From Elusimicrobiota bacterium (GTDB taxonomy: Bacteria; Elusimicrobiota; Elusimicrobia; Elusimicrobiales; UBA9959): a DNA stretch of 64,000 nucleotides. The DNA lies in the NCBI GenBank assembly GCA_009773155.1, contig WOVA01000001.1, positions 104,035 to 168,034 on the forward strand. The letters are read 5' to 3'. The translations under genes were made by a program, and so were the position numbers. Of this stretch, positions 19,279 to 60,479 are shown piece by piece (within the stretch, counting starts at the first letter, position 1; every line of letters begins with the position of its first letter). The notes below the pieces were generated by a model, which saw only the letters and a program-made list of their open reading frames with translations, did not search any database and was not told where the DNA came from.

Positions 19279-20934
19279 TCACCGGGCGCCTCCGCTGACG
19301 CAGGCGGAATGGCAGGCGCCGTGGCAGGCCGAATGGCAGGCGCTGTGGCAGGCAGAGTGGCACGCGTCGTGACAGGCCGAATGGCACGCGTCGTGGCAGG
19401 CGTCGCGCCCGAAGGCCCCCTCGTAGCAGGACTTCGAGGTCCTGAAGGTCGCGAAATCCAGGGCGGCGGCGTCGCCGAGCGAACCTTTCAGCCCCTCGCC
19501 GACGGCGGCGGAATTATCGTAGCGGCTGTCGTCGAGGCGCAGGAAGCGGCGCCTGTAGCCGCCCCAGTACCAGCCTTGATCGGTCCCGGGGCCGGCCGGG
19601 ACGTCGGTCTCGGCCTTTTTCCTGTAATAGGCCTTCGTCTCCTCCAGGTCGGCGTCCCAGATCTTCTGCTCCATACCGGCCGCTATGCTTTTGACCATCT
19701 CTTTAAGCGCGGGCTCGTCCACCGAGCCGTCCGGCTTTATGCCGCCGAGCAGCAGCGTCTCGTAAGGATCGTTGCTGGCGTAGATATGCGGCGGCTTGCT
19801 CACGCGCAGCGGGTCGGTGCCGGTTATCTTAACCAGCCCCTTGCGCTCCATGTTGCCCAGTATCAGCGCGCCCAGTTCGATCAGCGGCAGGCCCAGTATC
19901 ACGCCCGCCTCTATGGGGCTGAGGTCCTTTGCCACCTTGCCCGGCTTGCGGAAAGAGCTGACCTGCGCCTTGGGCGGCTCCCATTCGGTGCCCTCCCAGT
20001 TGACCTCCGAGATGCCGGCCTGCGCCACCAGCATGGAATTGTGCTTGCGCGTCATTATGACGAAAGGCAGCACGCCGAAGAAGACGGCGAAGATCAGCGC
20101 CAGGAAGAGGGTCTCGCCGCGGCTGACCGGGACCGTGGCCAGTACGCCGCCGGGAAAATAGCGGCCAAGGTAATAGCTCTCCGGCGCGGCCCTCCAGGGA
20201 CCTTTCGGCGTGCCGGCCAGCAGACCCGCGGAAGCCATCGTCTGCAGATCGAACACGCCGGCGTCCATATAGGTCTGCGTGCGCATGTGGAACTTAGCGC
20301 CGGCGCCCTTCCTGTGATAGCGCACGGTGAACAGCCGCTCGCCGGCCTCGTTGACCGTCTCGGGATAATCGATGAGGTAGCGCTCGTTCACGAATTTTTC
20401 GGTCATGAACGAGAGACGGGCCGCCGCGGCCTCGCCGGTCTCGCCGGGACCGAGCGGCACGGGATAGACGACCTTCACCGTCATATGCTCCAGCGGCTCG
20501 TCCCACTGCACCGGCGACCAGTTGAAGACCGCCAGGCGCCTGTCGCCGGCCATGGTCTGGGTCAGCGTGCCGGCGGCCTGAAAATCCGCCGTGTAGCGGA
20601 AGAAGAAGGTAATGTCGCCGCCGCCGAACCCGCGGCCGCCGGCCAGGACGATATCGTACTTGCGGCCCGACAGATGGCTTATGTCCAGGCTGTAGCGCTC
20701 GCCGCGGTCGTCCACGGCGTAGGCGCCCGCGCGGTCGAACAGCGGCGGCTCGGCCGCGCCCTCGAAGTAGAAGGCGTGTATCTCGCGCCCGGTCACGCCC
20801 CAGCGCACTGTATAGGCCACCTGGCCGCGCCCGTCGCGGTCCAGGACCACCTCGGTCTCGGTCCATTTAAGGTCGTAGCCGGCCGACGCCAGAGAAGGCA
20901 GGCAGAATAACAGGCAGAAAATCAGTTTTTTCAT
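19279..20934 (-). CDS. Signal-peptide/TM protein (DUF2207-like architecture) ending in a C-terminal (Ala-Cys-His-X)x8 repeat tail
   Basis: Start at MKKLIFCLLFCLPSLASA (ATG 20934, GAGGGG upstream). One clear TM helix (LFLALIFAVFFGVLPFVIM then RKH). LSPIEAGVILG...MERKGLVKI region. C-terminus is GRD-ACHD-ACHS-ACHD-ACHS-ACHS-ACHS-ACHG-ACHS-ACVSGGAR. Confidence 0.75.
   Translation of the reverse strand: MKKLIFCLLFCLPSLASAGYDLKWTETEVVLDRDGRGQVAYTVRWGVTGREIHAFYFEGAAEPPLFDRAGAYAVDDRGERYSLDISHLSGRKYDIVLAGGRGFGGGDITFFFRYTADFQAAGTLTQTMAGDRRLAVFNWSPVQWDEPLEHMTVKVVYPVPLGPGETGEAAAARLSFMTEKFVNERYLIDYPETVNEAGERLFTVRYHRKGAGAKFHMRTQTYMDAGVFDLQTMASAGLLAGTPKGPWRAAPESYYLGRYFPGGVLATVPVSRGETLFLALIFAVFFGVLPFVIMTRKHNSMLVAQAGISEVNWEGTEWEPPKAQVSSFRKPGKVAKDLSPIEAGVILGLPLIELGALILGNMERKGLVKITGTDPLRVSKPPHIYASNDPYETLLLGGIKPDGSVDEPALKEMVKSIAAGMEQKIWDADLEETKAYYRKKAETDVPAGPGTDQGWYWGGYRRRFLRLDDSRYDNSAAVGEGLKGSLGDAAALDFATFRTSKSCYEGAFGRDACHDACHSACHDACHSACHSACHSACHGACHSACVSGGAR
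19300..19401 (-). repeat. Tandem 12-bp coding repeat (about 8.5 units) encoding ACHX tetrapeptides
   Basis: Plus-strand periodicity gcaggcNNaatg/gtg is visible across 19300-19401. Translates on the minus strand to ACHDACHSACHDACHSACHSACHSACHGACHSAC. Confidence 0.9.
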
Positions 20935-20986
20935 CGTACCCCTCGCCGGCTGGAACGGTGCCGCATTTTTCATATAATATAAAAAC

Positions 20987-21081
20987 GGGACGCTGATTAC
21001 TAAATGATTAATTATGCACAGGCACGGATCCCGTCTTGAGCGAAGACCAGAGGGAATTAATCATTTAGTAATCAGCGTCCC
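20987..21081. repeat. AT-rich hairpin element, copy 1: perfect 27-bp inverted repeat with 41-nt loop
   Basis: Left arm gggacgctgattactaaatgattaatt (20987-21013) is the exact reverse complement of 21055-21081. TATAAT lies at 20973-20978 just upstream, and SD GGAGG plus ATG 21099 lie just downstream. Near-identical copy at 60387-60472. Confidence 0.9.
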
Positions 21082-38025: not shown

Positions 38026-40524
38026 CTATTTCTTTTCTTCGACCGCGACCTCTCCTTCGTCCACCACCGGCTCCACCGAGGCGATGCGGTCCCCCTCTTC
38101 GAGGCGGACCAGGCGCACGCCCTGGGTGTTGCGGCTGATGACGCGCAGGTCCTTGCAGGGCATGCGGATGATCTTGCCCTTCTCCGTCATCACCATCAGG
38201 TCGTCCCCGTTCTCCACCAGGTGCAGGCCCACGACGTGGCCGTTGCGGTCGGTGGCTTTTATCGTGATGACGCCCGAGCCGCCGCGGTGCTGGTGGCGGT
38301 ATTCGTCGAGGTCGGTGCGCTTGCCGTAGCCGTTGACGCAGACCGTCAGCAGGGTCTTCTTCGACTTGGGCTCGGCGACCTCCATGCCTATGACCTGGTC
38401 GTCCTTGTCCAGGCGGATGCCGCGCACTCCCATGGCCCCGCGGCCCATCGCGCGCACGTCGCTCTCGGCGAACCGGATCGACATGCCCTGCCTGGTGCCG
38501 ATTATTATCTCGTGCCTGCCTTCGGTGTGCTCGACGCTGGTCAGCACGTCGCCGTCCTCCAGGCCGATGGCGCGGATGCCGCTGCGCCGGATATTGGCGA
38601 AGTCGGCGATGGGGGTCTTCTTGATGTTGCCCTTGCGGGTGCACATCACGATGAAGCTCTCCTTGCCCTTGGCCTCTTCGAACGACTCGACCGCGAGCAC
38701 CGAGGTGACCTTCTCGTCCTTTATCTGCAGCAGGTTCACTATCGCCTTGCCGCGGGACGTGCGGTTGCCTTCGGGGACTTCGTAGCCCTTGAGCGCGTAC
38801 ACCGTGCCGCGCGTGGTGAACATCAGTATGGTGGCGTGGCTGGAGGTGACGAAGAGCTTCTCTATGAAATCCTCCTCCTTCACGTCGGAGCCGATGATGC
38901 CCTTGCCGCCGCGGCCCTGCACCTTATAGGTATCGGCCGGGATGCGCTTGATGTAGCCGCCGTGGCTCATCGTGATAACGACGCGTTCCTCTGGGATCAG
39001 GTCCTCGATGTCGAGTTCCTGCGCCTCGCCGGTGATGTCGGTCTTGCGCTTGTCGCCGTACTTCCCCTTCATGTACTCGAGTTCTTCGACGATGATCTTG
39101 AGCACTTTTTTGGGGTCGGCCAGGATGGCGCGGAGCTCGGCGACGAGCTTCATCAGGGCCTTGTGCTCCTCCTCGATGGCGCCGGTCTCCAGGCGGGTGA
39201 GCTGGTGCAGGCGCATGTCCAGGATGGCCTGGGCCTGTATGTCGCTCAGCGCGAACCTGGCCATCAGCTTTCCCTTGGCCTCGAGCGCGTCCTTGGACTT
39301 TTTGATTATCTCCACTACGGCGTCGATGTTCTGGAGGGCTATCAGGTAGCCTTCCAGTATATGGGCGCGGGCCAGGGCCTTCTTAAGGTCGTACCTGGTG
39401 CGGTTGACCACCATCAGTCTGCGGTGGCGCACGTACTGCGACATGACCTCTTTGACGGGCAGCACGCGCGGGCGGCCGTCCACGATGGCCAGCATGATGA
39501 CGCCGAAGCTGGTCTCCAGCTGCGTGTGCTTGTAAAGCTGGTTGAGCACGACCTGGGCATTGCCGTCGCGCTTGATCTCTATGACGACGCGCATGCCGCG
39601 GCGGTCCGACTCGTCGCGGATATCGGAGATGTCGGGGATCTTCTTGTCCTTGACGAGCTCGGCTATGTTCTCTATCAGCGTCGACTTGTTGACCTGGTAG
39701 GGGATCTCGGTGATAATGATGGCCTCGCGGTTGCCCTTGATCTCCTCTATCTCGGTGCGGGCCTGTATCTTGACGGAGCCGCGGCCGGTCTCGAAGTAAT
39801 CCTTGATGCCCTTGCGCCCGCGGATGATGCCGCCGGTCGGGAAGTCGGGGCCCTTGAGGATCTTCATCAGTTCTTTGACTTCGAGGTCCGGGTTAGCTAT
39901 GACGGCCATGGTAGCGTCGCAGACCTCGGTCAGGTTATGGGTGGGGATATTGGTGGCCATGCCTACCGCGATGCCCGAGGAGCCGTTGACCAGCAGGTTG
40001 GGCAGCTTGGCGGGCAGTACGCTGGGCTCCGTCATGGAGCCGTCGTAGTTGGGGACCCACTTCACGGTCTCCTTCTCTATGTCGGCCAGCAGCTCGCCGG
40101 CGATGCCCGAAAGGCGGGCCTCGGTGTAGCGCATCGCGGCCGCGGGGTCGCCGTCCACCGAGCCGAAGTTGCCCTGGCCGTCCACCAGCGGGTAGCGCAG
40201 GGAGAAACTCTGCGCCATGCGCACCAGCGTGTCGTAGATGGCGGAGTCGCCGTGCGGGTGGTATTTACCCATGACGTCGCCGACTATGCGGGCGGACTTC
40301 TTAAAGGGCTTGTTGTGCTGCAGGCCCATGTCGTCCATGGTGTAGAGCACGCGGCGGTGCACGGGCTTGAGGCCGTCGCGCACGTCGGGCAGCGCGCGGC
40401 CCACGATGACGCTCATCGAATAGTCTATGTAGGACGCCTTCATCTCCTCGCTGATATCGCGGTCGACGATATTGGCGAAGAGGTTGTCCACCGGCTGGTT
40501 CTTGTCGTTCTTGTTGGCTGTCAT
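38026..40524 (-). CDS. gyrA: DNA gyrase subunit A
   Basis: [24 protein letters not shown], the active-site region AAMRYTE, and a C-terminal beta-pinwheel. Confidence 0.95.
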
Positions 40525-40554
40525 TTTAAAACCGTCTCCTTAAAAAAATGGTCC

Positions 40555-44662
<4,108 letters not shown>

Positions 44663-44672
44663 GCCGGGGCCC

Positions 44673-45797
44673 TCACTGCGCGCGCAACGGCATCACTATG
44701 TAGAGGAATTCCTCTCCCTTGACCGGCTTGATAAGGGCCGGGGTGGAGGGAGCGTTGAATTCCATGAGGGCCTTGGCTTCCCCTATATTCCTGAGCACGT
44801 CCATCACGAACTTGGGATTGAAGCTGACCTGCAGGTCCTTGCCCTTGTAGTCGACGTCCGTCTCGTCCTCGAAATCCATGGTCTGGGACGAGGAGTTGAC
44901 TACCAGCACGCCTTTCTTGAAAGTATATTTGACCGCGCCGCTGCGTTCGTTGGAGCAGAGGGAGGCGCGCTTGGTGAGAGCCAGCAGCCGCGCCGTGTCT
45001 ATCTCGACCGAGGTCTCGCGGGTCCTGGGGATGATCTGCTCGTAGGCGGGAAAGTTCCCCTCGATGAGCCTGGAGACGAAGACCGTCTTTGCGATACGGA
45101 ACCCTATCTGGTTGGAGGAGAGGCCCACCGTCAACTCCTCTTTTTCGCCCAGGTCGGCCGCTGTTATGAACTTGACCAGCTCGCCGAGTATCTTGGACGG
45201 CACGATGACCTTGAAATCATTCTTCGCCTTGACTGCCTGGCTGGTGGCGACGGCCAGGCGGCGGCCGTCGGTGGCCACCACCGAAAAAACTCCCTTTTCG
45301 TATTTCCACAGGAGGCCGTTGAGAAAATGCCTCTCGTCCTCGGCGGCGATCGAGAAGAGGGTCCGCGACACCATATCGGCTATGAGGGAGGCGGGAGCTT
45401 TGAAGGAATTGCTTTCGTCCAGGTCGGGGATCACCGGGTAGTCGGCCTTGGGCGCGCCGCTGATCTTGAACCGGGTCTTGCCGGAGAGGATGGAGACCTT
45501 GTTGCCGTCGTCCACGTTCACGTTCACGTCCGCGTCGGGACCGAGGTTCTGTATTATCTCAAGGAACTTCTTTATAGGGACCGTTATGCTGCCGTCCCCC
45601 TTCACCTCCACGTTTATGTGGTGCTTTATGGCCATCTCGAGGTCGGTGAAGACGACCCTGAGACCCTGGTCCTCGGTCTCCATCAGGAAGTTCTGGAGTA
45701 TGGGCAGGGTCCCCGTCTTGGCCGAGACGCCGGCCTGGATGGTCTGTATTCCCCTGATGAGGTTCTCCCGGTTACTATTTATTTTCATCATCATCAT
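44673..45797 (-). CDS. dnaN: DNA polymerase III beta sliding clamp
   Basis: 374 aa with the three-domain clamp pattern (ILQNFLMETEDQGLRVVFTDLE...). Immediately downstream of dnaA. Confidence 0.95.
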   Translation of the reverse strand: MMMMKINSNRENLIRGIQTIQAGVSAKTGTLPILQNFLMETEDQGLRVVFTDLEMAIKHHINVEVKGDGSITVPIKKFLEIIQNLGPDADVNVNVDDGNKVSILSGKTRFKISGAPKADYPVIPDLDESNSFKAPASLIADMVSRTLFSIAAEDERHFLNGLLWKYEKGVFSVVATDGRRLAVATSQAVKAKNDFKVIVPSKILGELVKFITAADLGEKEELTVGLSSNQIGFRIAKTVFVSRLIEGNFPAYEQIIPRTRETSVEIDTARLLALTKRASLCSNERSGAVKYTFKKGVLVVNSSSQTMDFEDETDVDYKGKDLQVSFNPKFVMDVLRNIGEAKALMEFNAPSTPALIKPVKGEEFLYIVMPLRAQ

Positions 45798-45900
45798 CCT
45801 CTATATATAGCCTGTTAATTCTGTTGAAACTGTTGAAACCATCGGGGGAAGTTCTCCTCCTCCCGCCAAACCGGACTGACAATCTTAACAATGGCCGCCT

Positions 45901-45909
45901 TTATCCACA
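45901..45909 (+). promoter_or_regulatory. Perfect DnaA box TTATCCACA in the dnaA-dnaN intergenic region
   Basis: Exact 9-mer 5 nt from the dnaA stop codon. The adjacent direct repeat ctgttgaaa occurs twice at 45823-45840. Confidence 0.7.
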
Positions 45910-45913
45910 GCTT

Positions 45914-47284
45914 TTACTTGTTGCTGACAGACTTTATCTTGGTTATCAAGGTGTTCACCAGTTCGTTGATGAAGAGGTCGGTGTGCACCATATTCTGTAT
46001 CTTATTGCGCGCGTAGATGACCGTGGTGTGGTCCTTGCCGAAGGCGTCCCCCACGTTGGTGGTGGACAGTTCCGTCAGTTCGCAGGCCAGGTACATCGCG
46101 ATCTGGCGCGGCACCACCACCGAGTCCCGGCGCCCCTTGGAGCGCAGGTCCTTGGTGTCGAGCTGGTACTTCTCGGCCACTACGCTTATTATGGTCTCTA
46201 TGCTGATCTTGTCCCCGTCGTCCTGGTTTATACCCATGTGGTCCTTGATTATCCCGCGGACCACGTCTATGGTGGGCTGCAGCCGCATGTTCATGCAATA
46301 GTTGCCGACCGTCAGCAGGCAGCCGTCGAGTTCCCTGATGCTGGTCTTGACGTTCTCGCCTATGAAGTTGACGACGTCGTCGGGTATCTCGAACTTGTAC
46401 TGGTCGCGCTTCTCGCGCAGGATGGCGATGCGGGTTTCCAGGTCGGGCTGCTTCATGTCGGCTATGGTGCCCGAGAGGAAGCGGGAGACCAGGCGCTGGG
46501 CCAGCGAGAGTTCGCGGGGCGGCCGGTCGGAGGTGACCACTATCTGTTTCTTGGATTCGAACAGCGCGTTGAAGGTGTAGAAGAACTCCTCCTCGCTGCG
46601 CTCCTTGCCCATCAGGAACTGTATATCGTCGAGCAGCAGGCAGTCGAGCTTGCGGTACTTGCCGCGGAAGAGTTCGGCCGAGTTGCTCTTGTTCTGTATG
46701 GTGTCGATGTACTCGTTGACGAAATTCTCGCTGGGGGTGTAGATCACCTTGGCCGCCGGGTTGAGGCGCAGTATCTCGTTGGCTATGGCGTGCATCAGGT
46801 GGGTCTTGCCCAGGCCCGGCGGGCTGTAGATGAAGAAGGGGTTGGAGAGGTGCCCGGGTTTCTCGGCCACGGCCTTGGCCGAGTTGTAGGCCCAGCGGTT
46901 GGACGGCCCCACTATGAAGGTCTGGAAGGTGTAGTTGGGATTGAAGGACGAGTGCGCGGCGGCCTGGGGCCTGGATGCCGGCGCGGCCTGGATCTCGGGC
47001 TGCGGGGCGGGCCGGGGCTCCCTGGGGGCCAGCGAGAGGGAATAATCTATCTTATAGTCTTTACCGGAAAGTTCCGAAAGGGCGCGGATTATCACTTCCT
47101 CGTAGCGCTTTTTAATGGTTTCAAATATAAGAGGGTCGGGCACTTCCAGTTTGACCGTATCGCCCTCGATAACAAGCACCGAGACCGGCCTCATCCAGAG
47201 GTCGAAAGGGTCCTTGCCTATTTCCTGCTCGATTTTGACGCAGGCGTTCTGCCAGAGTTCTTTGCTGTTTATTGAGTTATCCAC
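45914..47284 (-). CDS. dnaA: Chromosomal replication initiator protein DnaA
   Basis: Walker A GPPGLGKTHL, box VII/sensor motifs, and a C-terminal DNA-binding domain (PRQIAMYLACELT...FGKDHTTV). GTG start at 47284. Confidence 0.95.
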   Translation of the reverse strand: MDNSINSKELWQNACVKIEQEIGKDPFDLWMRPVSVLVIEGDTVKLEVPDPLIFETIKKRYEEVIIRALSELSGKDYKIDYSLSLAPREPRPAPQPEIQAAPASRPQAAAHSSFNPNYTFQTFIVGPSNRWAYNSAKAVAEKPGHLSNPFFIYSPPGLGKTHLMHAIANEILRLNPAAKVIYTPSENFVNEYIDTIQNKSNSAELFRGKYRKLDCLLLDDIQFLMGKERSEEEFFYTFNALFESKKQIVVTSDRPPRELSLAQRLVSRFLSGTIADMKQPDLETRIAILREKRDQYKFEIPDDVVNFIGENVKTSIRELDGCLLTVGNYCMNMRLQPTIDVVRGIIKDHMGINQDDGDKISIETIISVVAEKYQLDTKDLRSKGRRDSVVVPRQIAMYLACELTELSTTNVGDAFGKDHTTVIYARNKIQNMVHTDLFINELVNTLITKIKSVSNK

Positions 47285-47296
47285 AACTTATCCACA
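47277..47296 (+). promoter_or_regulatory. Two perfect tandem DnaA boxes (TTATCCACA x2) at the dnaA start
   Basis: ttatccaca at 47277-47285 and 47288-47296, in the same orientation, 2 nt apart. Confidence 0.8.
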
Positions 47297-47553
47297 AGTG
47301 TTAATATCGCGGTGTTTTGACTGAAAAACGTATATAAAATAAGCGTTTTATTTGTTAATTATGCTTTCAGGGCTTGACTTAGCAAGACTTGATCAAAAAA
47401 CGCAAAAAGACCCGGTTTTTCCCTGTGCAAAGACGATTTACGGTAAGGAAAATATTACCTTAAATACATAGAGTGTGTCAACAGGGGCCGGAAAATCAGG
47501 CAGGCGCTTTTTAAAGGCAGGCTGAAAGCCCCTTAAAAGGGGCCCGGATGGCT
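47285..47553. other. Putative chromosomal replication origin (oriC) with AT-rich unwinding region
   Basis: Largest non-coding, strongly AT-rich island in the window (for example aaaaacgtatataaaataagcgttttatttgttaattatgc), immediately upstream of dnaA and abutting the DnaA boxes. Confidence 0.7.
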
Positions 47554-49005
47554 TTATCCGGCCTTTACCCCCACTTTAACCCTTTTGAAGCGGGCCGGGC
47601 TGGAGCCGTGGCACATCGCGGCCGTCTGCGGGGGCTGTCCCTTGCCGCAGTTGGCGACGCCCCAGAGCCGCCATTCGTCCGGGCCGCAGATGGCGTCGCA
47701 GGATCCCCAGAAAGCCGGCGTGATGCCCTGGTAGGTGGGGTTTCGCACCATTTTCTTTATCTTTCCGTTCTCCACCAGCCAGCCGATCTCGCAGCCGAAC
47801 TGGAAGTTCAGCCGCCGCTGGTCTATGCTCCAGGACTTATTGTTCTCCATTATTATTCCGCGCTTCGTTGAGCGGACCAGGTCCTCCATGGAGCCGGCGG
47901 AACCGGGCATGAGGCTGAGGTTGCAGATGCGCGTTATCGGTATATTGGCCGGTCCGTCGGCGCGGCAGGAGCCCTGCGAGCGCCGCAGGCCTACGCGCGG
48001 CGCGAACTCGCGGTTGGTCATGTAGCCGGAGAGTACGCCGTCCTTCACGATATGCCAGCGCTGGGCCTTCACGGCGTCGTCGTCATAGCCGGCCGTGGCC
48101 AGGCCGCCGGGCAGCGTCGCGTCGGCGACCAGGTTCACCATCGGGGAGCCGTAGCGGAAGCTGCCCAGTTTTTCGGTGGTGGCGAAGCTCGAGCCCGCGT
48201 ATGATTCCTCGTAGCCCAGCACGCGGTCGAGCTCGCTGGCGTGGCCGACCGACTCGTGTATCTGCAGCGCCATCTGGTTGCCGTAGGTGATCAGGTCCAG
48301 CTCGCCGGAGGGGCAGTCCGGCGCCTTGAGCAGGGCGACCGCCTCGGAGGCGGCCTTCTCCGCGTGGCCGGGAAGATCGAGCAGGTCGATGAGCTCGTAG
48401 CCCATGGCCAGCGTCTGGCCGCCGTGCGAGCAGGGGTAGCCGCGCTCCTGCACCTGCGCTCCGTCGACGGCCGTGGCGCGGCAGTCGGCGCCGCTCGAAA
48501 GCAGCACCTGCTCTATCCGCGAGCCTTCCGTGGTGGCGTGCCACTGATGCTCGCGGACGAAGCGCATGGAGGAGAGGGCCGACTTTATCCTGCGGTCGCG
48601 CCTCATGAGGCGGTCGGCCTCGAAAAGGGTCCGGAATTTCTCCTCTACCGGCACCGCGAAAGGGTCCTTTATGAACGGCGTCTGCCAGAAATCACGGTAG
48701 GCGGGCTCCGGGGCCAGCCGCACCTTCCGGTCCATCAGCATGGCGCTGGCCCGGGCTATTTCCAGCGCCAGCAGCGAGACGCGCCTGACCTCGGCCCGCG
48801 TCACCAGGCCGCTGGAGGCGAAGCCCCAGGCCCCGCCCAGCAGCACCCGGACGCCGAAGCCCAGGGTCTCCGAGTCGTCGACGGAGCCGGTCTCGCCGTT
48901 GCGCACGCCCAGCGACTGGGCGCGGGTGCGGACTATCCTTATGTCGCCGAAATCCGCCCGGCGGGAGGAGAGTACGTCGATAGCTTCTTCGCAGAGTCCG
49001 AACAT
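47554..49005 (-). CDS. tldD: TldD-family metalloprotease
   Basis: HESVGHASELD (HExxxH) motif. 483 aa. Paired with a PmbA-like gene. Confidence 0.9.
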   Translation of the reverse strand: MFGLCEEAIDVLSSRRADFGDIRIVRTRAQSLGVRNGETGSVDDSETLGFGVRVLLGGAWGFASSGLVTRAEVRRVSLLALEIARASAMLMDRKVRLAPEPAYRDFWQTPFIKDPFAVPVEEKFRTLFEADRLMRRDRRIKSALSSMRFVREHQWHATTEGSRIEQVLLSSGADCRATAVDGAQVQERGYPCSHGGQTLAMGYELIDLLDLPGHAEKAASEAVALLKAPDCPSGELDLITYGNQMALQIHESVGHASELDRVLGYEESYAGSSFATTEKLGSFRYGSPMVNLVADATLPGGLATAGYDDDAVKAQRWHIVKDGVLSGYMTNREFAPRVGLRRSQGSCRADGPANIPITRICNLSLMPGSAGSMEDLVRSTKRGIIMENNKSWSIDQRRLNFQFGCEIGWLVENGKIKKMVRNPTYQGITPAFWGSCDAICGPDEWRLWGVANCGKGQPPQTAAMCHGSSPARFKRVKVGVKAG

Positions 49006-54295: not shown

Positions 54296-55179
54296 GCAAT
54301 AAGGGAGACCTGCGGAACGTCCCTATCTTCCGGAACTTCACCGACGAGATGCTCGCCCAGTTCTCGGAGACTTTCAAGCAGTCCTTCTACAAGAAGGACG
54401 AGGTAATCTTCCGGGAGCGCAGCGAGGGAGACACGCTGTTCATCATCGTCTCGGGCTCGGTGACCATAGAGAAGAAGCTCGACGACGAAGGGAAGGCCTT
54501 TAAGACGCTGGCGATACTGAGCGCCGGGGAATTCTTCGGAGAGATGGCCGTGCTCGAGGGGCAGACCCGCTTCGCGCAGTCCCGCGCCGAGACCGACACC
54601 GTGCTCTACGAGGTGAGGAGGACGGAGTTCTTCGGCTTCATAAAGGACCACCCGGACAACGGCATCTCCATCTTCACCGAGATCATGAAGTCCGTGCTGC
54701 GCCGCCTGCAGCACACCTCCAGCGAACTGACCATGCTCTACGACATGAGCAAACTGGTGCTGCGCGAATACCGCTCCTCGCGGGAGTTCCTGGCCGAGGT
54801 GCTCGACGAGGTCTACACCCATTTCGAAGGCAGCTGGAACATCAGCGTGTTCGCCTACAACCAGTTCAACGAGGAGTTCGACGAGGCCGGCACCCGCTCG
54901 ACCTTCGACGAAGCCCCGGAAAAACTGGCGGCCGCGCCGCCGGAGGAGAGCGCCTGGACCGCCCCTAACGCCTATGTGGTCGTTTTCAGGGGGCACAAGG
55001 GCCCGCTGGGCTACATGCGCTTCGCCAGGCCGGCCGATTTTACCGACACCGAGAAGAACTCGCTGTCCACTATATTCGGCACGCTGTCCTCGATAATCTC
55101 CTCGGCGGTGGAGAATATCGAACACCAGGCAGAGGCGGCGCTAATGCGGAAGCTCAAGGAGCAGAAGGACACCATATGA
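54292..55179 (+). CDS. Cyclic-nucleotide-binding domain protein with uncharacterised C-terminal domain
   Basis: ATGA overlap with pilT. CAP_ED pattern VPIFRNF...GEFFGEMAVLEG...R.A... Confidence 0.75.
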   Translation: MSNKGDLRNVPIFRNFTDEMLAQFSETFKQSFYKKDEVIFRERSEGDTLFIIVSGSVTIEKKLDDEGKAFKTLAILSAGEFFGEMAVLEGQTRFAQSRAETDTVLYEVRRTEFFGFIKDHPDNGISIFTEIMKSVLRRLQHTSSELTMLYDMSKLVLREYRSSREFLAEVLDEVYTHFEGSWNISVFAYNQFNEEFDEAGTRSTFDEAPEKLAAAPPEESAWTAPNAYVVVFRGHKGPLGYMRFARPADFTDTEKNSLSTIFGTLSSIISSAVENIEHQAEAALMRKLKEQKDTI

Positions 55180-55715
55180 ACGACAACAAACTCAGATTCA
55201 GGAAACTGGCGGCGGCCGCCGCCCGGCTGGCCGACTCAAAGAAAGCCGCCGACGTAAAAATATACGACATAGCCAATAAGTCCGACGCGGCCTATTTCGC
55301 GCTGCTCTCCACGGTGGAGTCGCAGCCGCAGATGAGGGCGGTCGAGGACGAGATCTCGGTGGAGCTCAAGCGCGTCGAGGGAGTTCACGCCCTGCACCGC
55401 GACGGTCTGCTGAGCCGCACCTGGAAGGTCATCGACTACGGCGGCCTCGTCGTGCACGTCTTCGAGCCCTCCGCCCGCGGTTTCTACGCGCTGGACAGGC
55501 TCTACGAGGACTGCGCCCTGGTGGACTGGCAGGATAAACCCGCCAGCAAGCCCGCGGCGAAGGAAGTCCCGGCGAAGAAAGCCACGGCGAAGAAAACCCC
55601 GGTTAAAAAAGTTTCGGTCAAAAAGGCCGCGGTCAAAAAAGCCGCCCCCCGGCCCGTCGCAGAGCTCCGGGCACCGACCGCGGCGAAAGCCGCCCTGATC
55701 CGGAAAAAGAAATAG
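55176..55715 (+). CDS. rsfS: Ribosome silencing factor RsfS with Lys/Ala/Pro-rich C-terminal extension
   Basis: Core YFALLSTVESQPQMRAVEDEI...WKVIDYGGLVVHVF...FYALDRLY. From residue 121 onward, KPASKPAAKEVPAKKATAKKTPVKKVSVKKAAVKKAA... Confidence 0.8.
   Translation: MNDNKLRFRKLAAAAARLADSKKAADVKIYDIANKSDAAYFALLSTVESQPQMRAVEDEISVELKRVEGVHALHRDGLLSRTWKVIDYGGLVVHVFEPSARGFYALDRLYEDCALVDWQDKPASKPAAKEVPAKKATAKKTPVKKVSVKKAAVKKAAPRPVAELRAPTAAKAALIRKKK
55649..55703 (+). repeat. 55-nt GC-rich structured repeat, copy A (inside the 3' end of rsfS)
   Basis: ccggcccgtcgcagagctccgggcaccgaccgcggcgaaagccgccctgatccgg. 51/55 identical to copy B by my manual alignment. Confidence 0.85.
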
Positions 55716-55716
55716 C

Positions 55717-57378
55717 ATGAGGCTGCGCGCTCTTGAAGACTCTCTCCGGGAGAGCGCCGGCCGCGCCTTCGGACTGACCCGGGAAGAACTCTCCTCGCTG
55801 GCCGTGGCGCCGCCGCCCGGCCATATCGACGCCGACGCCTCCGTGTCCTGGCCGATCTCGGCCGCCAAAACACTGCGCAAGCCGCCGCTGAAAATAGCCG
55901 AGGAACTGAGGGACGCGCTGCCGCCGGAACTCGCGGCCGGCGCCGTGCCCCCCGGCTTCGTCAACCTTAAGCTGGCCGACGGCTTCCTGCTGGATTCCCT
56001 GCGCGACATAACGGAGAATCCCTCCTATTTCCACCGGCCTGAATACGCGGCCGAGCATATCAATCTGGAATTCGTCTCAGCCAACCCCACCGGGCCGCTG
56101 CACCTGGCCTCGGGCCGCGGCGCCACGCTGGGCGACAGCCTGGCCCGCATCTTCCGCGCGCTGGGCGCGAAGGTCTCGGAGGAATTCTACGTCAACGACA
56201 AGGGCCGGCAGGTGGAGATGCTGGGTCTTTCGCTCAAGGCGCGCTTCGAGGGCAAGGATCCCCCGGAGGACGGCTATCACGGCGACTATCTTAAAGACCT
56301 AGCCGCCGGCGCGCCGGCGGACGCCGCGTCCTGGGACGCCCCGAAGTTCTCGGAGTACGCGATTACGGAGATGCTCAAACTCCATAGGGCCGACATGGCG
56401 GCCTTCCGCGTGGAGTTCGACCGCTGGTTCCTGGAATCGGAACTGCACGCGGCCGACGCCCCGGCGAAGGCCCTCTCCGGGTTGCGCGCCCGCGGCATGG
56501 CCTATGACAAGGAGGGCGCCGTCTGGTTCGGCGCCGCCTCGGAACTGGAATCAGACGACAAGGACCGCGTGCTGGTCAAATCCGGCGGCGCCAACACCTA
56601 TTTCCTCAACGACATCGCCTACCACCTCGACAAACTCTCGCGCGGTTTCACGCGGCTGATAGACGTCTGGGGGGCGGACCATCACGGTTACGTGCCGCGC
56701 ATGGAGGCCGCCGTCGGCGCGCTGGCCGGCCCGTCGCAGAGCTCCGGGCACCGACCGCGGGCAATGCCGCCCTGTTCCGGCGCGACAGAGAAGTTCAAGG
56801 TGGTGATCCACCAGCAGGTGGCGCTCAAGCGCGGAGCAGAGCTGGTCAAGATGTCCAAGCGCGCCGGAGAGTTCATCCCGCTAAAGGAACTCGTGGACGA
56901 GGTGGGGACCGACGCCTGCCGCTTCTTCTTCGCCTCGCGCGGCCCCAACACCCATCTCACCTTCGACGTGGACCTGGCCAAGAAGCGGTCCAACGAGAAC
57001 CCGGTCTTCTACGTTCAGTACGTGCACGCGCGCATCAGTTCCATCTTCGCCAACGCGGCGGAGAAGGGCGTGGACCCGGCCGCCGCTTTCGATCCCGCGG
57101 CCGTGAAGTTCAACCCCGAGGAGCGGGCGCTTGCGATGAAGCTGCTGTGGCTGGAAAAAACGCTCTCTGACTGCGCGCGGGACTATTCCCCGCATCACCT
57201 GACCACCTACCTGACGGAACTGGCCTCGCTGTTCCATTCTTTCTATGACAAACACAAGGTGCTCGATCCGCAGACCCCGCAGGTTACGGCCTTCCGCCTT
57301 TTCCTGCTGGAGGCCGTGCGCAAAGTCATAGCCGACACGCTGGGCCTGCTCGGCGTCTCGGCTCCCGAGCGGATGTAG
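55717..57378 (+). CDS. argS: Arginine--tRNA ligase (carries an in-frame repeat insertion)
   Basis: SANPTGPLHLASGRG (HIGH-type) and the VKMSKRAG (KMSK) motif. 553 aa. Confidence 0.95.
   Translation: MRLRALEDSLRESAGRAFGLTREELSSLAVAPPPGHIDADASVSWPISAAKTLRKPPLKIAEELRDALPPELAAGAVPPGFVNLKLADGFLLDSLRDITENPSYFHRPEYAAEHINLEFVSANPTGPLHLASGRGATLGDSLARIFRALGAKVSEEFYVNDKGRQVEMLGLSLKARFEGKDPPEDGYHGDYLKDLAAGAPADAASWDAPKFSEYAITEMLKLHRADMAAFRVEFDRWFLESELHAADAPAKALSGLRARGMAYDKEGAVWFGAASELESDDKDRVLVKSGGANTYFLNDIAYHLDKLSRGFTRLIDVWGADHHGYVPRMEAAVGALAGPSQSSGHRPRAMPPCSGATEKFKVVIHQQVALKRGAELVKMSKRAGEFIPLKELVDEVGTDACRFFFASRGPNTHLTFDVDLAKKRSNENPVFYVQYVHARISSIFANAAEKGVDPAAAFDPAAVKFNPEERALAMKLLWLEKTLSDCARDYSPHHLTTYLTELASLFHSFYDKHKVLDPQTPQVTAFRLFLLEAVRKVIADTLGLLGVSAPERM
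56726..56788 (+). repeat. 55-nt GC-rich structured repeat, copy B (in frame inside argS)
   Basis: ccggcccgtcgcagagctccgggcaccgaccgcgggcaatgccgccctgttccgg plus cgcgacag. Translated as ..GPSQSSGHRPRAMPPCSGAT.. between conserved ArgRS blocks. Confidence 0.85.
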
Positions 57379-57400
57379 AAAAGGGTTCCGGTACAAAAAG

Positions 57401-57430
57401 AAGGGCCGCCCCGGGGGCGGCCCTTTCATT
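57401..57430. terminator. Bidirectional rho-independent terminator after argS
   Basis: aagggccgcc / ggcggccctt 10-bp stem with loop ccggg. An A-run precedes it and tttcattt follows. Confidence 0.55.
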
Positions 57431-57450
57431 TCGCTGGGAGCAGCGGCGAG

Positions 57451-57702
57451 CTATCCGACGCCGGCGCCGGTCTTATCATCCTTTTTTTTGCCGCCCCGGT
57501 CTTCGTCGGCCAGTTCTTTCAGCAGCGGGTCTTCCGGCCGCCAGCCGCAGGCGAGCCGCGAGACTACGAGCAGAAGGCCCCCGGCCAAGGTCAGCAACAA
57601 GAAGAATTTATAGAGCCCGCCGCCGCGGACCGGGGCGAGCTCCATTCCTATCACGCCGGCTCCCAGCAGCGGAACACCGGCCCATAACATTATCTTTTTC
57701 AT
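57451..57702 (-). CDS. Small two-TM membrane protein with acidic/basic tail
   Basis: 83-aa ORF with two hydrophobic helices. No family recognised. Confidence 0.45.
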   Translation of the reverse strand: MKKIMLWAGVPLLGAGVIGMELAPVRGGGLYKFFLLLTLAGGLLLVVSRLACGWRPEDPLLKELADEDRGGKKKDDKTGAGVG

Positions 57703-57724
57703 CGCGCGGATATGGCGGCGCAGT

Positions 57725-59704
57725 TCACCTGAAGTCCGTCACCCCGTACTCGCCGGGTCGCAGCCCCCCGGTCCGGCCGTCCGGCAGGGTGAACTGGGTG
57801 TATTGCCGGGTAATGTTCCCGATAACGGCTTTGGCGCGCCCGGGATAAGTGGAGGAGCGCATCACATAGCCCGTCCAGGTCTGTCCGCCCGGAGCCCAGA
57901 GCGGCTCTATAGTATAGTCGCCCAGTTCCTTCCTGACCGAGGCCGAAAGGGACAGTATCTCCTGGTAGGTCTTCCTTACCTCCGGCTTGCCGCCCTGCCA
58001 GTCTATGGCGCAGGGTACGCTGAAAGGCAGAGGTTTATGCTCGGCGGGCACGGCGGCGTCGTAGCCGATCTCGGCGCCGTTGTACATCAGCGTCGAGCCG
58101 GGATAGAGGAAGGTGAGCGCCAGGGCGGCCGGCAGGCGCTCGCCGTAGACGCGCTCGGGAGCGGGCTCGTCGTGATTGCCCGTGAAGGCCACGGCGCCGG
58201 CGCCGCCCGACTGCCAGGCCAGGAAGGCGAGCCTGTTCATCGCGCTGGCCAGCTCATGAGGGCTGCCGTGCTCCATCGCCTGGTACCAGCCGGTCTGGCC
58301 TTCTTCGCGCCCGGTCTCGAACTTGCTGTATATCACGTCGAAGCCGCAGGCGGAGAGGTCTTCCTGGAAAGAGTAGGCCTCGGCCATGAAGGCGGTCGAA
58401 GGCTTGGCGGCCTTGACCGTCCCTATGAGGCCGCGGTAGAATTCGTCGCGCGGCATGGTCCGGCCCCAGGTGCGGCCGAAGACATTGTTGAGGTCCAGGT
58501 GCGCCATATCCACGCGGAAGCCGTCCACGTTGAACTTCGTCACCCAGCCCTTGACTATCTCCGTCATCCTGGCGCGCAGTCTGACGTTGGAATAATCAAT
58601 CTGCGCGGTGTCTATCCAGTCGGAGACGCCGCCGCCGTACCAGAAGCCGCCGTGGTGGATGCACCAGCGCTCGCCGCCGTGCCGCTGCTCGAAATGCTGG
58701 TTAGGGCAGGCGCCGGACGGCCGCCGGTGACCGATGAAGTAGGCCGGATCCTCGAAGAGCAGCTTCGCGTCCATCGAGGTGTGGTTGACCACGAAGTCCA
58801 CTATGACCCGCAGTCCCGCGGCATGGGCGTTCTTCACGAAGCGCCGGAAATCCTCCTCGGTGCCGAGGTCGGGGTTAACGGTGGAATGATCGCTGATGGA
58901 GTACACCGATCCGCCGCCGGTGCCGGTCTGGCCGCGCACGCCTATCGGGAATATACCCATAGGCCAGACCGTGTCGAACCCCATCCTCTTTATCGCATCA
59001 AAGTCGGAGGGGCGGAAATCCCTGAAGAAAACGGTCCCGCCCGCTCCGGACTGGGACTTTACTCCCGCCTCGCGCCGCCCGGCCAGGTTATAGGCACGGG
59101 GGAAGATCTGGTAGACGCGGGCCTTCTTCGCCCAGAGGGAGGCGTCGTAACGGCGCACATTGTCCTGCAGCCCGGCGACGTAATAATCGAGCATCTCGTT
59201 GAGGCGGGCGTTCTTTTCCGCCGCGGGCAGCGTGGAGCCGCCCAGCTCTTTGAGCGCCGAACGCAGCTCGGCGGTCCAGGCCACGGGGGCCAGCAGGGCG
59301 TCGAGGTAACTGAAATAGTCGGGCAGGTGATGGAGGAAGGTGTCCGCGCCGAAGCGGCCCTCGAGCTCCTTTTTGGTCCAGAGGAAGCCCTCCAGCCCCA
59401 CGCCCTGGGCCTGGGTAGTCCAGCCTCCGGGATGGCGGAAGAGAAAGTGGCGCATTTCCGGGGTAGAGCCGTTCCAGGCTCCCGCGGAGAGGACCTGCCT
59501 GGTCTCCAGGAGGAATTCCATCGCCGCCGAATTTTTTTCCGGAGGCCGCGGTATCTCTATGGCCGGCGCCGCGCCGTTGCCGTCGAACAGCGCCGCCGCC
59601 CGCGCGCGCAGCGCTTCCGGCTGCGCCGCCGGCAGGACGGCCGGGAACAGCGCCGTCAGCAGCAGGGCGGGCAGCAGTGGGATTAAAAGGTTCTTTTTGA
59701 TCAT
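57725..59704 (-). CDS. Secreted alpha-amylase-family glycoside hydrolase (GH13)
   Basis: Signal peptide. Conserved regions VIVDFVVNHTS, GFRVDMAHL, AEAY and FTGNHD. Confidence 0.85.
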   Translation of the reverse strand: MIKKNLLIPLLPALLLTALFPAVLPAAQPEALRARAAALFDGNGAAPAIEIPRPPEKNSAAMEFLLETRQVLSAGAWNGSTPEMRHFLFRHPGGWTTQAQGVGLEGFLWTKKELEGRFGADTFLHHLPDYFSYLDALLAPVAWTAELRSALKELGGSTLPAAEKNARLNEMLDYYVAGLQDNVRRYDASLWAKKARVYQIFPRAYNLAGRREAGVKSQSGAGGTVFFRDFRPSDFDAIKRMGFDTVWPMGIFPIGVRGQTGTGGGSVYSISDHSTVNPDLGTEEDFRRFVKNAHAAGLRVIVDFVVNHTSMDAKLLFEDPAYFIGHRRPSGACPNQHFEQRHGGERWCIHHGGFWYGGGVSDWIDTAQIDYSNVRLRARMTEIVKGWVTKFNVDGFRVDMAHLDLNNVFGRTWGRTMPRDEFYRGLIGTVKAAKPSTAFMAEAYSFQEDLSACGFDVIYSKFETGREEGQTGWYQAMEHGSPHELASAMNRLAFLAWQSGGAGAVAFTGNHDEPAPERVYGERLPAALALTFLYPGSTLMYNGAEIGYDAAVPAEHKPLPFSVPCAIDWQGGKPEVRKTYQEILSLSASVRKELGDYTIEPLWAPGGQTWTGYVMRSSTYPGRAKAVIGNITRQYTQFTLPDGRTGGLRPGEYGVTDFR

Positions 59705-60273
59705 TTCCTTCTCCTATTCTTGTTTTCGCCGGCCGCTCGCAGAGCTCGCGGCACCGACTGCGGGCAATGCCGCCCTGTTCCGGCGGACAGCGCCAGCAGG
59801 AACAGCCAGTCCGACAGCCTGTTGAGCAGGACGGCCGGCCCTTTCGCTTTCAGCTCCCAGCATAAGATCTCGCAGACGCGCGCCTTGGCCCGGGCCAGGT
59901 GCAGCGTGGCCTCCACCGGGTTCCCGCCGGGCAGCACGAACCTGGCCGGCGGTTTTACCGTGAGAGAGAGTTCAGCCCCGGCCTTTTCAAGGCCGGAGGT
60001 CAGTTCCCGCAGTTCGCCGCCGTTCTTCATCCCGGCGATGTTCGCCGCCGCCTCCGACAGGGCGGTCTGCGCCCGGGCGAGGGCCGCCCTTTCAAAACCG
60101 CCGGCCTTCACCAGCCCCAGGAGGCAGGAGAGCTCGTCTATAAGCGCGTTGGCCTTTATGCGCGGATCTGTCTTGGGTACCCGGCGGCCGGCCAGGAGGT
60201 CCGTGAGGCCGCCGTCACCGGAGCCCCTCGCCGGCTTGAAAGATCTTTGCATTTTTACGCCGCCTTTAACCAC
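59701..60273 (-). CDS. PduO-type ATP:cob(I)alamin adenosyltransferase with repeat-derived C-terminus
   Basis: GDGGLTDLLAGRRVPKTDPRI, FVLPGG and LNRLSDWLFLLA motifs. The last ~25 residues (GTGRHCPQSVPRALRAAG...) are encoded by the reverse complement of repeat copy C. Confidence 0.8.
   Translation of the reverse strand: MVKGGVKMQRSFKPARGSGDGGLTDLLAGRRVPKTDPRIKANALIDELSCLLGLVKAGGFERAALARAQTALSEAAANIAGMKNGGELRELTSGLEKAGAELSLTVKPPARFVLPGGNPVEATLHLARAKARVCEILCWELKAKGPAVLLNRLSDWLFLLALSAGTGRHCPQSVPRALRAAGENKNRRRK
59729..59790 (+). repeat. 55-nt GC-rich structured repeat, copy C (antisense within the 3' end of the adenosyltransferase gene)
   Basis: ccggccgctcgcagagctcgcggcaccgactgcgggcaatgccgccctgttccgg plus cggacag. 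50/55 identical to copy B, with paired dinucleotide swaps that keep a 5-bp stem. Confidence 0.85.
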
Positions 60274-60386
60274 AGTATAAGAGTGTAGCGCGGGCCGGGC
60301 CGGAAAGTCAGTGTCCGGGGACCCAGGAGGGACCCGGAAAAAGCACCAGCCCGGTCTGGGTCCAACGGCCCAATTGGTATAATTAG

Positions 60387-60472
60387 GGGACGCTGATTAC
60401 TAAATGACTAATTATCCACAGGGGCAGTCTTCACCGCAGGACCGTAATTAGTCATTTAGTAATCAGCGTCCC
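60387..60472. repeat. AT-rich hairpin element, copy 2: perfect 28-bp inverted repeat with 30-nt loop
   Basis: gggacgctgattactaaatgactaatta (60387-60414) is the exact reverse complement of 60445-60472. Extended -10 TGGTATAAT ends at 60383. SD AAGGAG at 60474-60479. Confidence 0.9.
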
Positions 60473-60479
60473 TAAGGAG

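Follow-up and report, generated by a model that had tools for sequence, protein, structure and literature searches.

We analysed 64,000 nt of a contig from an Elusimicrobiota bacterium of the order Elusimicrobiales (WOVA01000001.1, positions 104,035 to 168,034 of the forward strand; hereafter the window) and a short repeat, family D2, of which the window holds three copies, each in a protein-coding gene. Copy A lies in the gene of the ribosomal silencing factor RsfS (55176..55715, plus strand, supported by Pfam), copy B in that of arginyl-tRNA synthetase (ArgRS; 55717..57378, plus strand) and copy C in that of a PduO-type ATP:cob(I)alamin adenosyltransferase (P0001; 59701..60252, minus strand, 183 aa from its ATG). 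The stop codon of the adenosyltransferase gene is overlapped by the ATG of a GH13 alpha-amylase-family gene (57725..59704, minus strand).

The repeat unit and its place in the adenosyltransferase gene

All three copies are on the plus strand, so that, as the original prediction had stated, copy C shares the strand of A and B and is opposite to its host gene. The D2 matches, which include short junction repeats, span 55648-55705 (A), 56725-56782 (B) and 59728-59785 (C) and are 88-91% identical to reference copy B. A repeat of 55 nt (55-62 nt) had been described at this site; the repeat is real, and its best unit is 51 nt long (59731-59781 for copy C), the excess being the short junction repeats. 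A 22-nt core pattern of the unit, TCGCAGAGCTCNNGGCACCGAC, occurred at only three places in the window even when up to three mismatches were allowed (chance expectation 0.01), and three matches were reached in 0 of 100 shuffles. When a covariance model, R1, built on 26 distinct copies of the family was run over the 64 kb, it detected exactly three copies, at 78-81 bits; with filters off there was no further copy in the window, and the next match scored only 15.5 bits.

All true copies aligned without gaps to the 51-nt unit GGCC-NN-TCGCAGAGCTC-N'N'GGC-ACCGAC(T/C)-GCGG-N5/6-CCGC-CCTG(T/A)TCC, in which hairpin 1 (a 5-bp stem with a conserved 11-nt loop) is followed by a conserved spacer, GGCACCGAC, by hairpin 2 and by a tail, CCCTG(T/A)TCC. 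The unit of copy C (59731..59781, plus strand; 80.7 bits, E=3e-17), which was also delimited by the empty site in L004 (L numbers are our handles for the loci compared), reads GGCCGC TCGCAGAGCTC GCGGC ACCGACT GCGG GCAATG CCGC CCTGTTCC. Its hairpin 1 (59732..59752, plus strand) consists of the 5' arm GCCGC (59732-59736), the loop TCGCAGAGCTC (59737-59747) and the 3' arm GCGGC (59748-59752); hairpin 2 (59760..59773, plus strand) has the form GCGG-N6-CCGC, and its stem is invariant across copies. The left junction overlap CCGGC (59729..59733, plus strand) occurs again at 59780-59784; in the empty site the target is CGCCGGCGGACAG. The unit of copy B (56728..56778, plus strand; 80.0 bits) is read in sense within ArgRS as GPSQSSGHRPRAMPPCS, and that of copy A (55651..55701, plus strand; 78.1 bits), in the Lys-rich C-terminal tail of RsfS, is read in sense in another frame as RPVAELRAPTAAKAALIR. 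A hammerhead-like ribozyme, to which the CUGAUCC and GAAA motifs of copy A bear some resemblance, was rejected by eye, as the core is unlike CUGANGA and most copies read CUGUUCC.

The element is 75% G+C, and all six of its frames are free of stop codons, except that the CTGATCC variant closes one sense frame. In some copies the loop of hairpin 2 holds an extra 21-nt hairpin module. This module, CCCCGC-AAG-GCGRGG plus flanks, was seen in L008 (4272-4343), in L016 (5474-5544) and in the copies of L028 and L029; its length is again a multiple of three, and the fact that copies with unlike stem-1 variants share it suggests that they have recombined or undergone gene conversion. Length variants are 72 nt (51+21) beside a coding region and, among intergenic copies, include 50 and 71 nt, which are not multiples of three.

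Copy C lies in a minus-strand open reading frame (ORF; 59701-60273) whose protein, 100% identical to FD189_1265 of 'MAG: Elusimicrobia bacterium', ends in ...LFLLALSAGTGRHCPQSVPRALRAAGENKNRRRK (also given as ...LSAGTGRHCPQSVPRALRAAGENKNRRRK); the gene reads the unit antisense as GTGRHCPQSVPRALRAA. The original prediction held that residues derived from the repeat replace the usual C-terminus of the enzyme, which proved incorrect. DNA alignment with L004 showed that copy C is an addition of 17 in-frame codons placed eight codons before the native stop, and that the last eight codons, ENKNRRRK, are the native tail, aligning with SAGDDTGRKR and SAGGNTGRKK of orthologues. Orthologues without the element are 164-165 aa long and end in ...LSAGGNTGRKK or ...LSAGDDTGRKR, and the insertion is common to P0002 and P0007. 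In alignments to solved PduO-type structures, the extended tail comes after the last conserved helix (...LNRLSDWLFLLAL). The predicted 4-nt overlap with the GH13 gene, in which the adenosyltransferase TGA and the GH13 ATG share ATGA (minus strand, 59704-59701), was found as described. The Lys/Arg-rich tail, the GH13 ribosome-binding site and this overlap are native, because they are present in L004, L028 and L029. As judged from these alignments, copy C merely lengthens a C-terminal tail of predicted disordered type and does not disturb the native stop or the translational overlap.

Paired changes in the stem of hairpin 1

Copy C differs from copy B at five positions, CG to GC in the 5' arm, CG to GC in the 3' arm and C to T in the spacer, by which the stem GCCCG/CGGGC becomes GCCGC/GCGGC and remains fully complementary. 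These differences had been correctly noted in the original prediction, which ascribed them to selection on a nucleic-acid structure and not on the encoded peptides. We examined the structure in 26 distinct copies from about 11 genomes (stem 1, columns 2-6/18-22; stem 2, columns 30-33/40-43), and the larger set contained the expected excess of compensatory changes: 99.2% of stem-1 cells were paired, four of the five pairs had both sides changed (19 cells) and one-sided changes numbered 0. The observed stem-1 pairing or covariation score was reached by 0 of 500 shuffles, and sliding the stem-1 partner by 1-3 columns lowered the pairing to 38-56%. The lone uncompensated cell was an A.C in L007, in an intergenic copy that also carries a 1-nt deletion. 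Since the 5' arm is outside the search pattern, its complementarity is not an effect of ascertainment. Stem 2 did not vary and thus provides no evidence either way.

The variable stem positions occurred in the states CG/CG, GG/CC and GC/GC, with GT/AC in L003 and AC/GT in L025 and L027; further states were GCGGC/GCCGC in L008 (6872) and GTCGC/GCGAC in L021 (2683). There were at least six independent compensated changes, including those at two further stem positions. The states are joined by single compensated steps (CG to and from GG, GG to and from GC, and GC to GT or AC), so that what looked like dinucleotide swaps from B to C is better read as two such steps via the abundant GG/CC state. 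In L025 and in L021 (2683) both arms had changed together and the right-hand junction repeat was still the older GGCCGC, which indicates that compensation also took place after insertion, or in a master copy. When the orthologous copies C of the window and L029 were compared, 51 of 51 unit positions were identical and the flanking coding DNA was 80-90% identical. This difference, taken from aligned sequences, would imply constraint, gene conversion or recent re-insertion.

The 26-copy test and the use of all six reading frames thus support selection on a nucleic-acid structure, although templated mutation could give the same pattern. This alternative makes the paired changes an unselected mutational by-product, either of quasipalindrome correction templated by one arm on the other or of gene conversion that spreads matched arms. 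The all-or-none nature of the changes (no one-sided cell against 19 changed on both sides) would be expected from it, as would the fact that a few subfamilies (CG, GG and GC) make up most cells, so that events are far fewer than cells. Further, copy C of the window lacks the 21-nt module and its L028/L029 counterparts carry it, yet all have the same GC stem, which hints at conversion between copies. Against these points stand at least six independent compensated states at four stem positions versus one uncompensated change, and the high conservation of loop and spacer, which templating leaves unexplained; moreover, templating still requires that the hairpin form in single-stranded DNA. We regard a pure by-product as distinctly unlikely.

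Insertion sites, arrays and distribution

Three sets of loci are syntenic with 50-64 kb of the window: L004 (TamC13-45), L028/L030 (GCA_040752315.1) and L029/L031 (a Logan assembly). They contain empty sites for all three copies. The copy C site is empty in L004 (...GTCGCCGGCGGACAG...) and filled in the window by exactly 51 additional nt, with the overlap CCGGC. The ArgRS genes of L028 and L029 encode 536 aa and are empty at the copy B site (CTGGCCGGGGCC); that of the window encodes 553 aa, is 51 nt longer and has the overlap CCGG, and alignment with Campylobacter ArgRS (PDB 3fnr) left an exact gap of 17 residues at copy B. For copy A, the empty site is found in the RsfS genes of L030 and L031 (GCCGCCCCCCGG/AAAAAG, the slash marking the insertion point), the window again being 51 nt longer, with the overlap CCGG. 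A fourth site, upstream of the adenosyltransferase gene (60367..60371, plus strand), is empty in the window (CAACGGCCCAATTGG, target GGCCC) and filled in L004, with the overlap GGCCC.

Just upstream of copy A (55600-55645), the Lys-rich tail of RsfS is about 30 nt longer in the window than in L030/L031 and contains a near-repeated KKxxVKK-coding stretch; this is a tail expansion independent of copy A. At the fourth site, a nested complex of elements was also seen in L028 (approximately 2760-2900).

Each verified insertion was exactly one unit, placed at a short CCGG or GGCC site of 4-8 nt with a match to TTCC/GGCCNNTC, the junction of the unit's own end with its start. Over 27 independent insertions, the overlap between flank and unit end averaged 6.3 nt, compared with 0.94 nt at random, the largest of 2000 null means being 1.93. 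Overlaps ranged from 2 to 14 nt with a mode of 8 nt, and lay in differing registers within TTCC/GGCCNNTC: CCGG(C) in the window, GGCCC in L004 and GGCCGGTC in L010 and L014. Targets that match the junction in shifting registers indicate that the copies are circularly permuted forms of a single 51-nt circle, each cut open at a slightly shifted point; the head-to-tail junction of such a circle, or of an array, reads ...CCCTGTTCC/GGCCNNTCGCAG.... Where the right flank starts with GGCC, it matched the copy's own variable NN in 11 of 18 cases and is hence complementary to the 3' arm of that copy. In L007, the right flank agrees with the 3' arm and not with the mutated 5' arm.

These junctions bear on whether the element is an ordinary MITE (miniature inverted-repeat transposable element), that is, a deletion derivative of an insertion sequence (IS) with a DDE transposase, terminal inverted repeats and a fixed target-site duplication. 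The element is short, non-coding and dispersed, its flanks carry short direct repeats, and the CCGG overlap is found at all three window copies. However, its ends, GGCCNNTCGC... and ...CCCTGTTCC, are not inverted repeats, as the reverse complement of the 3' end, GGAACAGGGC, does not match GGCCNNTCGC. Further, the overlap of 2-14 nt shifts in register across the four pairs of empty and filled sites, and any fixed duplication would make the 'ends' differ between copies; head-to-tail arrays of whole units likewise do not fit. An ordinary MITE is therefore highly improbable.

Such arrays were found in L003, with 3.15 head-to-tail units, and in L019, with 1.27 units (a partial second unit). The L003 units are 67-69% G+C in a metagenome-assembled genome (MAG) of 45% G+C and thus look recently acquired or expanded, not ancestral. 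Three of them lie in frame in a radical-SAM gene (3431-3583), with the stem variant GT/AC seen nowhere else. The L028/L029 orthologue of copy C contains the 21-nt module plus a nested, related yet distinct 51-nt element in opposite orientation. The nested element, GCCGGGCGACATAGCGCCCGGCACCTGCGGAGCCGGAGGCTCGTTGTTCC (L028 3543-3593, L029 3519-3569), is built on the same GGCACC...GTTCC plan, with a stem of 8 bp. Nesting of this kind implies that 17-codon elements form a superfamily whose members insert into each other.

A scan of species-representative genomes with the core pattern yielded 21 loci, 19 of them true and from seven Elusimicrobia MAG species; in metagenomes, three of six loci were true. 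With an nhmmer profile and the covariance model, five further diverged copies were detected in the fetched loci, giving about 30 copies in about 11 Elusimicrobiales genomes. The matches outside Elusimicrobia (L006, L018, L022, L023 and L026) were rejected as chance, having nothing beyond the 22-nt search core in common with the family. No copy was found in viral contigs or plasmids. When the six-frame peptides were compared with a collection of 5.8 billion proteins, none of 8000 word candidates reached E<=10, the queries being too short and too low in complexity. Copies are locally clustered, with three in 4.1 kb of the window (55651-59781), three in 2.5 kb of L021 (216-2683) and pairs in L008, L012 and L016. 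This is, by impression, far commoner than for a dispersed low-copy repeat and suggests local hopping or a regional target preference.

About two thirds of the copies are within Pfam-supported genes, and several are intergenic. The hosts confirmed by Pfam are a PurQ-like amidotransferase (GATase), an aldehyde dehydrogenase, the radical-SAM enzyme with three tandem units, a class-V aminotransferase, a Na+/H+ antiporter, a molybdopterin (MoCo) dehydrogenase, UvrA (two copies), a FabA-like protein, MltA, HflX (inside the G domain), an amidohydrolase, a SpoU methylase and RsfS. The usual place in the host proteins is a tail, a linker or a length-variable loop, and copies are also found inside essential enzymes (the catalytic core of ArgRS, the G domain of HflX, and UvrA). 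All six frames and both orientations are in use, about 8 copies being sense and about 13 antisense to their genes, so that one DNA yields six different peptides.

This usage speaks to two further alternatives. One is a structured RNA motif, serving as a regulatory, stabilising or processing signal in transcripts, whose fold is selected as RNA. The stem covariation is real, the element is better conserved than the flanking coding DNA, and the two imperfect cells (in stem 1 of L007 and in GCGAGG of the 21-nt module) are C.A on the plus strand and would be G.U on the complementary strand, all of which would suit an RNA. In contrast, sense and antisense copies are near-equal in number and occupy every frame, which speaks against a motif acting within mRNA; G.U intermediates were found in 0 of 19 changed stem cells; and exact 51-nt gains, permuted junctions, nesting and arrays are the behaviour of mobile DNA. 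Rfam gave no match on the whole window at gathering thresholds and, on 55.5-60.6 kb at permissive E-values, none overlapping the element. We consider an RNA motif very unlikely. The other alternative, that the 17-residue peptide is itself selected as a modular protein insert, would account for in-frame insertions kept in essential proteins, but we give it practically no credence, since all six frames and both orientations are used and the peptides thus cannot be the selected object, several copies are intergenic, and variation tracks base pairing and not codon position.

A probable mobile DNA repeat and its relation to known systems

We conclude that the element is probably (at a probability of about 0.72) a small, non-coding, non-autonomous mobile DNA repeat confined to Elusimicrobiales, of which copy C is a fixed insertion. 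It would spread via a circular or tandem single-stranded DNA intermediate, in which a trans-acting enzyme, most likely an HUH/Y1-type nuclease or another site-specific recombinase, would recognise hairpin 1 and the conserved loop. The intermediate would then be joined to CCGG/GGCC targets that resemble the unit junction. A requirement for the hairpin at the DNA level would explain the compensatory stem changes, and insertions in genes would survive only by virtue of their length (51 = 3 x 17) and their lack of stops, with the 17 extra residues as passengers. As a refinement, the 3' arm of hairpin 1 may serve as a guide for target choice. Taken to its limit, this would make the unit a self-contained circular single-stranded mobile element, among the smallest known, whose 3' arm is both stem partner and guide for GCCNN targets and whose stem variants are lineages, each re-targeted, of a mini-transposon that is programmable by nature and is moved by an enzyme of the host or of a mobile element; we put this forward as a tentative and rather unlikely extension.

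Several observations weigh against a mobile repeat of this kind. The intermediate is deduced only from permuted junctions and arrays. Although the original prediction pointed to a repetitive extragenic palindromic (REP)-associated tyrosine transposase (RAYT) or another mobilising enzyme, Pfam detected no transposase, Y1_Tnp, RAYT, integrase or reverse transcriptase among the approximately 57 ORFs of the window (64 kb of the genome), and no longer autonomous element with these ends was present among the matches. RNA and DNA folds of single copies were no better than those of dinucleotide shuffles (z -1.6 to +1.7), and the minimum-energy fold of copy C has a pairing other than the covarying stem; at 75% G+C folding energy alone is uninformative, and the stem is supported by comparison of copies and not by thermodynamics. 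The strong conservation of old copies could stem from gene conversion and not from function. Finally, all copies come from MAGs, with contigs of unplaced orientation, from which copy number per genome and replication orientation are not derivable.

The three window copies are all on the plus strand, 8-12 kb to the right of dnaA-dnaN-gyrB-gyrA (n=3); the GC skew is flat and uninformative for the replication strand. The dnaA-dnaN-dciA-gyrB-gyrA cluster occupies 38029-47287 (minus strand), with G+C falling to 0.59 at 40-48 kb, and the origin of chromosome replication probably lies immediately upstream of dnaA (intergenic, approximately 47288-47556), 8-12 kb from the three copies. If so, the plus form of these three copies would be on the lagging-strand template, by analogy with IS200/IS605 (PMC3333891).

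Among known systems, IS200/IS605 transposition on single-stranded DNA with guide pairing would be the closest mechanistic analogy. In these elements, recognition of subterminal hairpins takes place on single-stranded DNA, a single-strand circle is the intermediate, and a short guide beside the hairpin pairs with the target (PMC3201880, PMC3597680, PMC5934647). The elements and their miniatures have two different ends, are at least 100 nt long and integrate 3' to a fixed sequence of four or five nucleotides, which is recognised partly by non-canonical pairs (PMC3201880, PMC3597680, PMC5934647). The 51-nt unit shares with them the lack of terminal inverted repeats and of a classical duplication. 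The three-way match between 5' arm, 3' arm and right flank would fit their guide logic, by analogy only, no TnpA having been found in the window.

Mycobacterial interspersed repetitive units (MIRUs) are reportedly about 50-77 bp long, are found as single units or in variable tandem arrays and are continuous in frame with neighbouring genes; they lie between the genes of operons, not inside them. MIRUs are not known for hairpin covariation or permuted junctions.

REPs are 30-40 nt long, carry a conserved GTAG on the 5' side of the stem foot, need a mismatch in the stem, are mostly extragenic, form inverted dimers (bacterial interspersed mosaic elements, BIMEs; REP doublets forming hairpins, REPINs) and are linked to RAYTs (PMC3333891, PMC3479197, PMC8266576). 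Like REPs, BIMEs and REPINs, the element is non-coding and forms GC-rich hairpins in which paired changes keep complementarity, and it occurs in tandem clusters; for REPs, mobilisation in trans on single-stranded DNA is presumed. Unlike GTAG-type REPs, it lacks GTAG throughout the 51-nt consensus and at the base preceding stem 1, its stem is perfect, each unit holds two different hairpins, most copies are intragenic, and arrays are head-to-tail, with no inverted dimers seen. REPs of the CGTC class have a CGTC head, an 8-9-bp stem, a 4-5-nt loop and a 3-nt tail; Di Nocera et al. (2013) described REPs within coding sequences, uvrA and uvrB among them, where they occupy termini or lie in modular proteins, the CGTC class having no dedicated transposase (PMC3733652). 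The element resembles these intragenic REPs in lying within genes, with UvrA among the hosts, and differs from CGTC REPs in its 5-bp stem and 11-nt loop and in that 'CGTC' is found only in the CG variant, the others reading GGTC, GCTC, GTTC and ACTC.

Rickettsia palindromic elements (RPEs) were first described as repeats of about 150 bp with one conserved peptide frame per family in AT-rich alphaproteobacteria (Ogata et al. 2000, as summarised in PMC10969869). In that account, RPEs resemble the present element as small non-coding palindromic repeats that are found in frame in unrelated housekeeping genes, keep the ORF and add a passenger peptide at sites compatible with the fold. On the same account, and by description and not by sequence, the element differs from RPEs in its length of 51 bp, its 75% G+C, its use of six frames and both orientations, and its circularly permuted insertion with homology at the junctions. 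Membership in the Rickettsia RPE families is implausible, given the other phylum, length and base composition. Full-text literature searches returned no account of this element in Elusimicrobia. It is a previously undescribed family, an unusual variant of small palindromic mobile repeats.

Other features of the window were noted. A second, unrelated repeat (60387-60472 and 20987-21081) is a perfect hairpin with AT-rich arms of 27-28 nt (GGGACGCTGATTACTAAATGACTAATTA) and a loop of 30-41 nt; it sits just upstream of a nifU-like gene and of an ACT-domain gene, L004 having only a remnant like one arm. Its appearance is that of a MITE or of a regulatory palindrome. The miRNA-like Rfam matches at 60386-60473 were rejected as chance, arising from this AT-rich hairpin, which is unrelated to the 51-nt element. 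The gyrB ORF (40558-44373, minus strand; 1272 codons from stop to stop) contains an intein (Pfam Intein_splicing, residues 470-894) between GyrB and Toprim. Further, a tandem repeat with a 12-nt period (19293-19412) encodes a run of Cys-His tetrapeptides at the C-terminus of an ORF at 19282-21060 (minus strand; 593 codons from stop to stop) with no Pfam match.

Selfish DNA inside genes has been represented mainly by the Rickettsia RPEs and a few intragenic REPs, and the present element would extend it to a phylum that has received little study and to a highly compact form. Taken together, nesting and arrays, permuted junctions and the three-way covariation point to a mode of integration that is unusual and may be guide-like. 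Presence/absence polymorphism among close Elusimicrobiales genomes is usable for strain markers. For annotation, the 17-residue inserts would be passengers, and not lineage-specific functional loops or novel C-termini.

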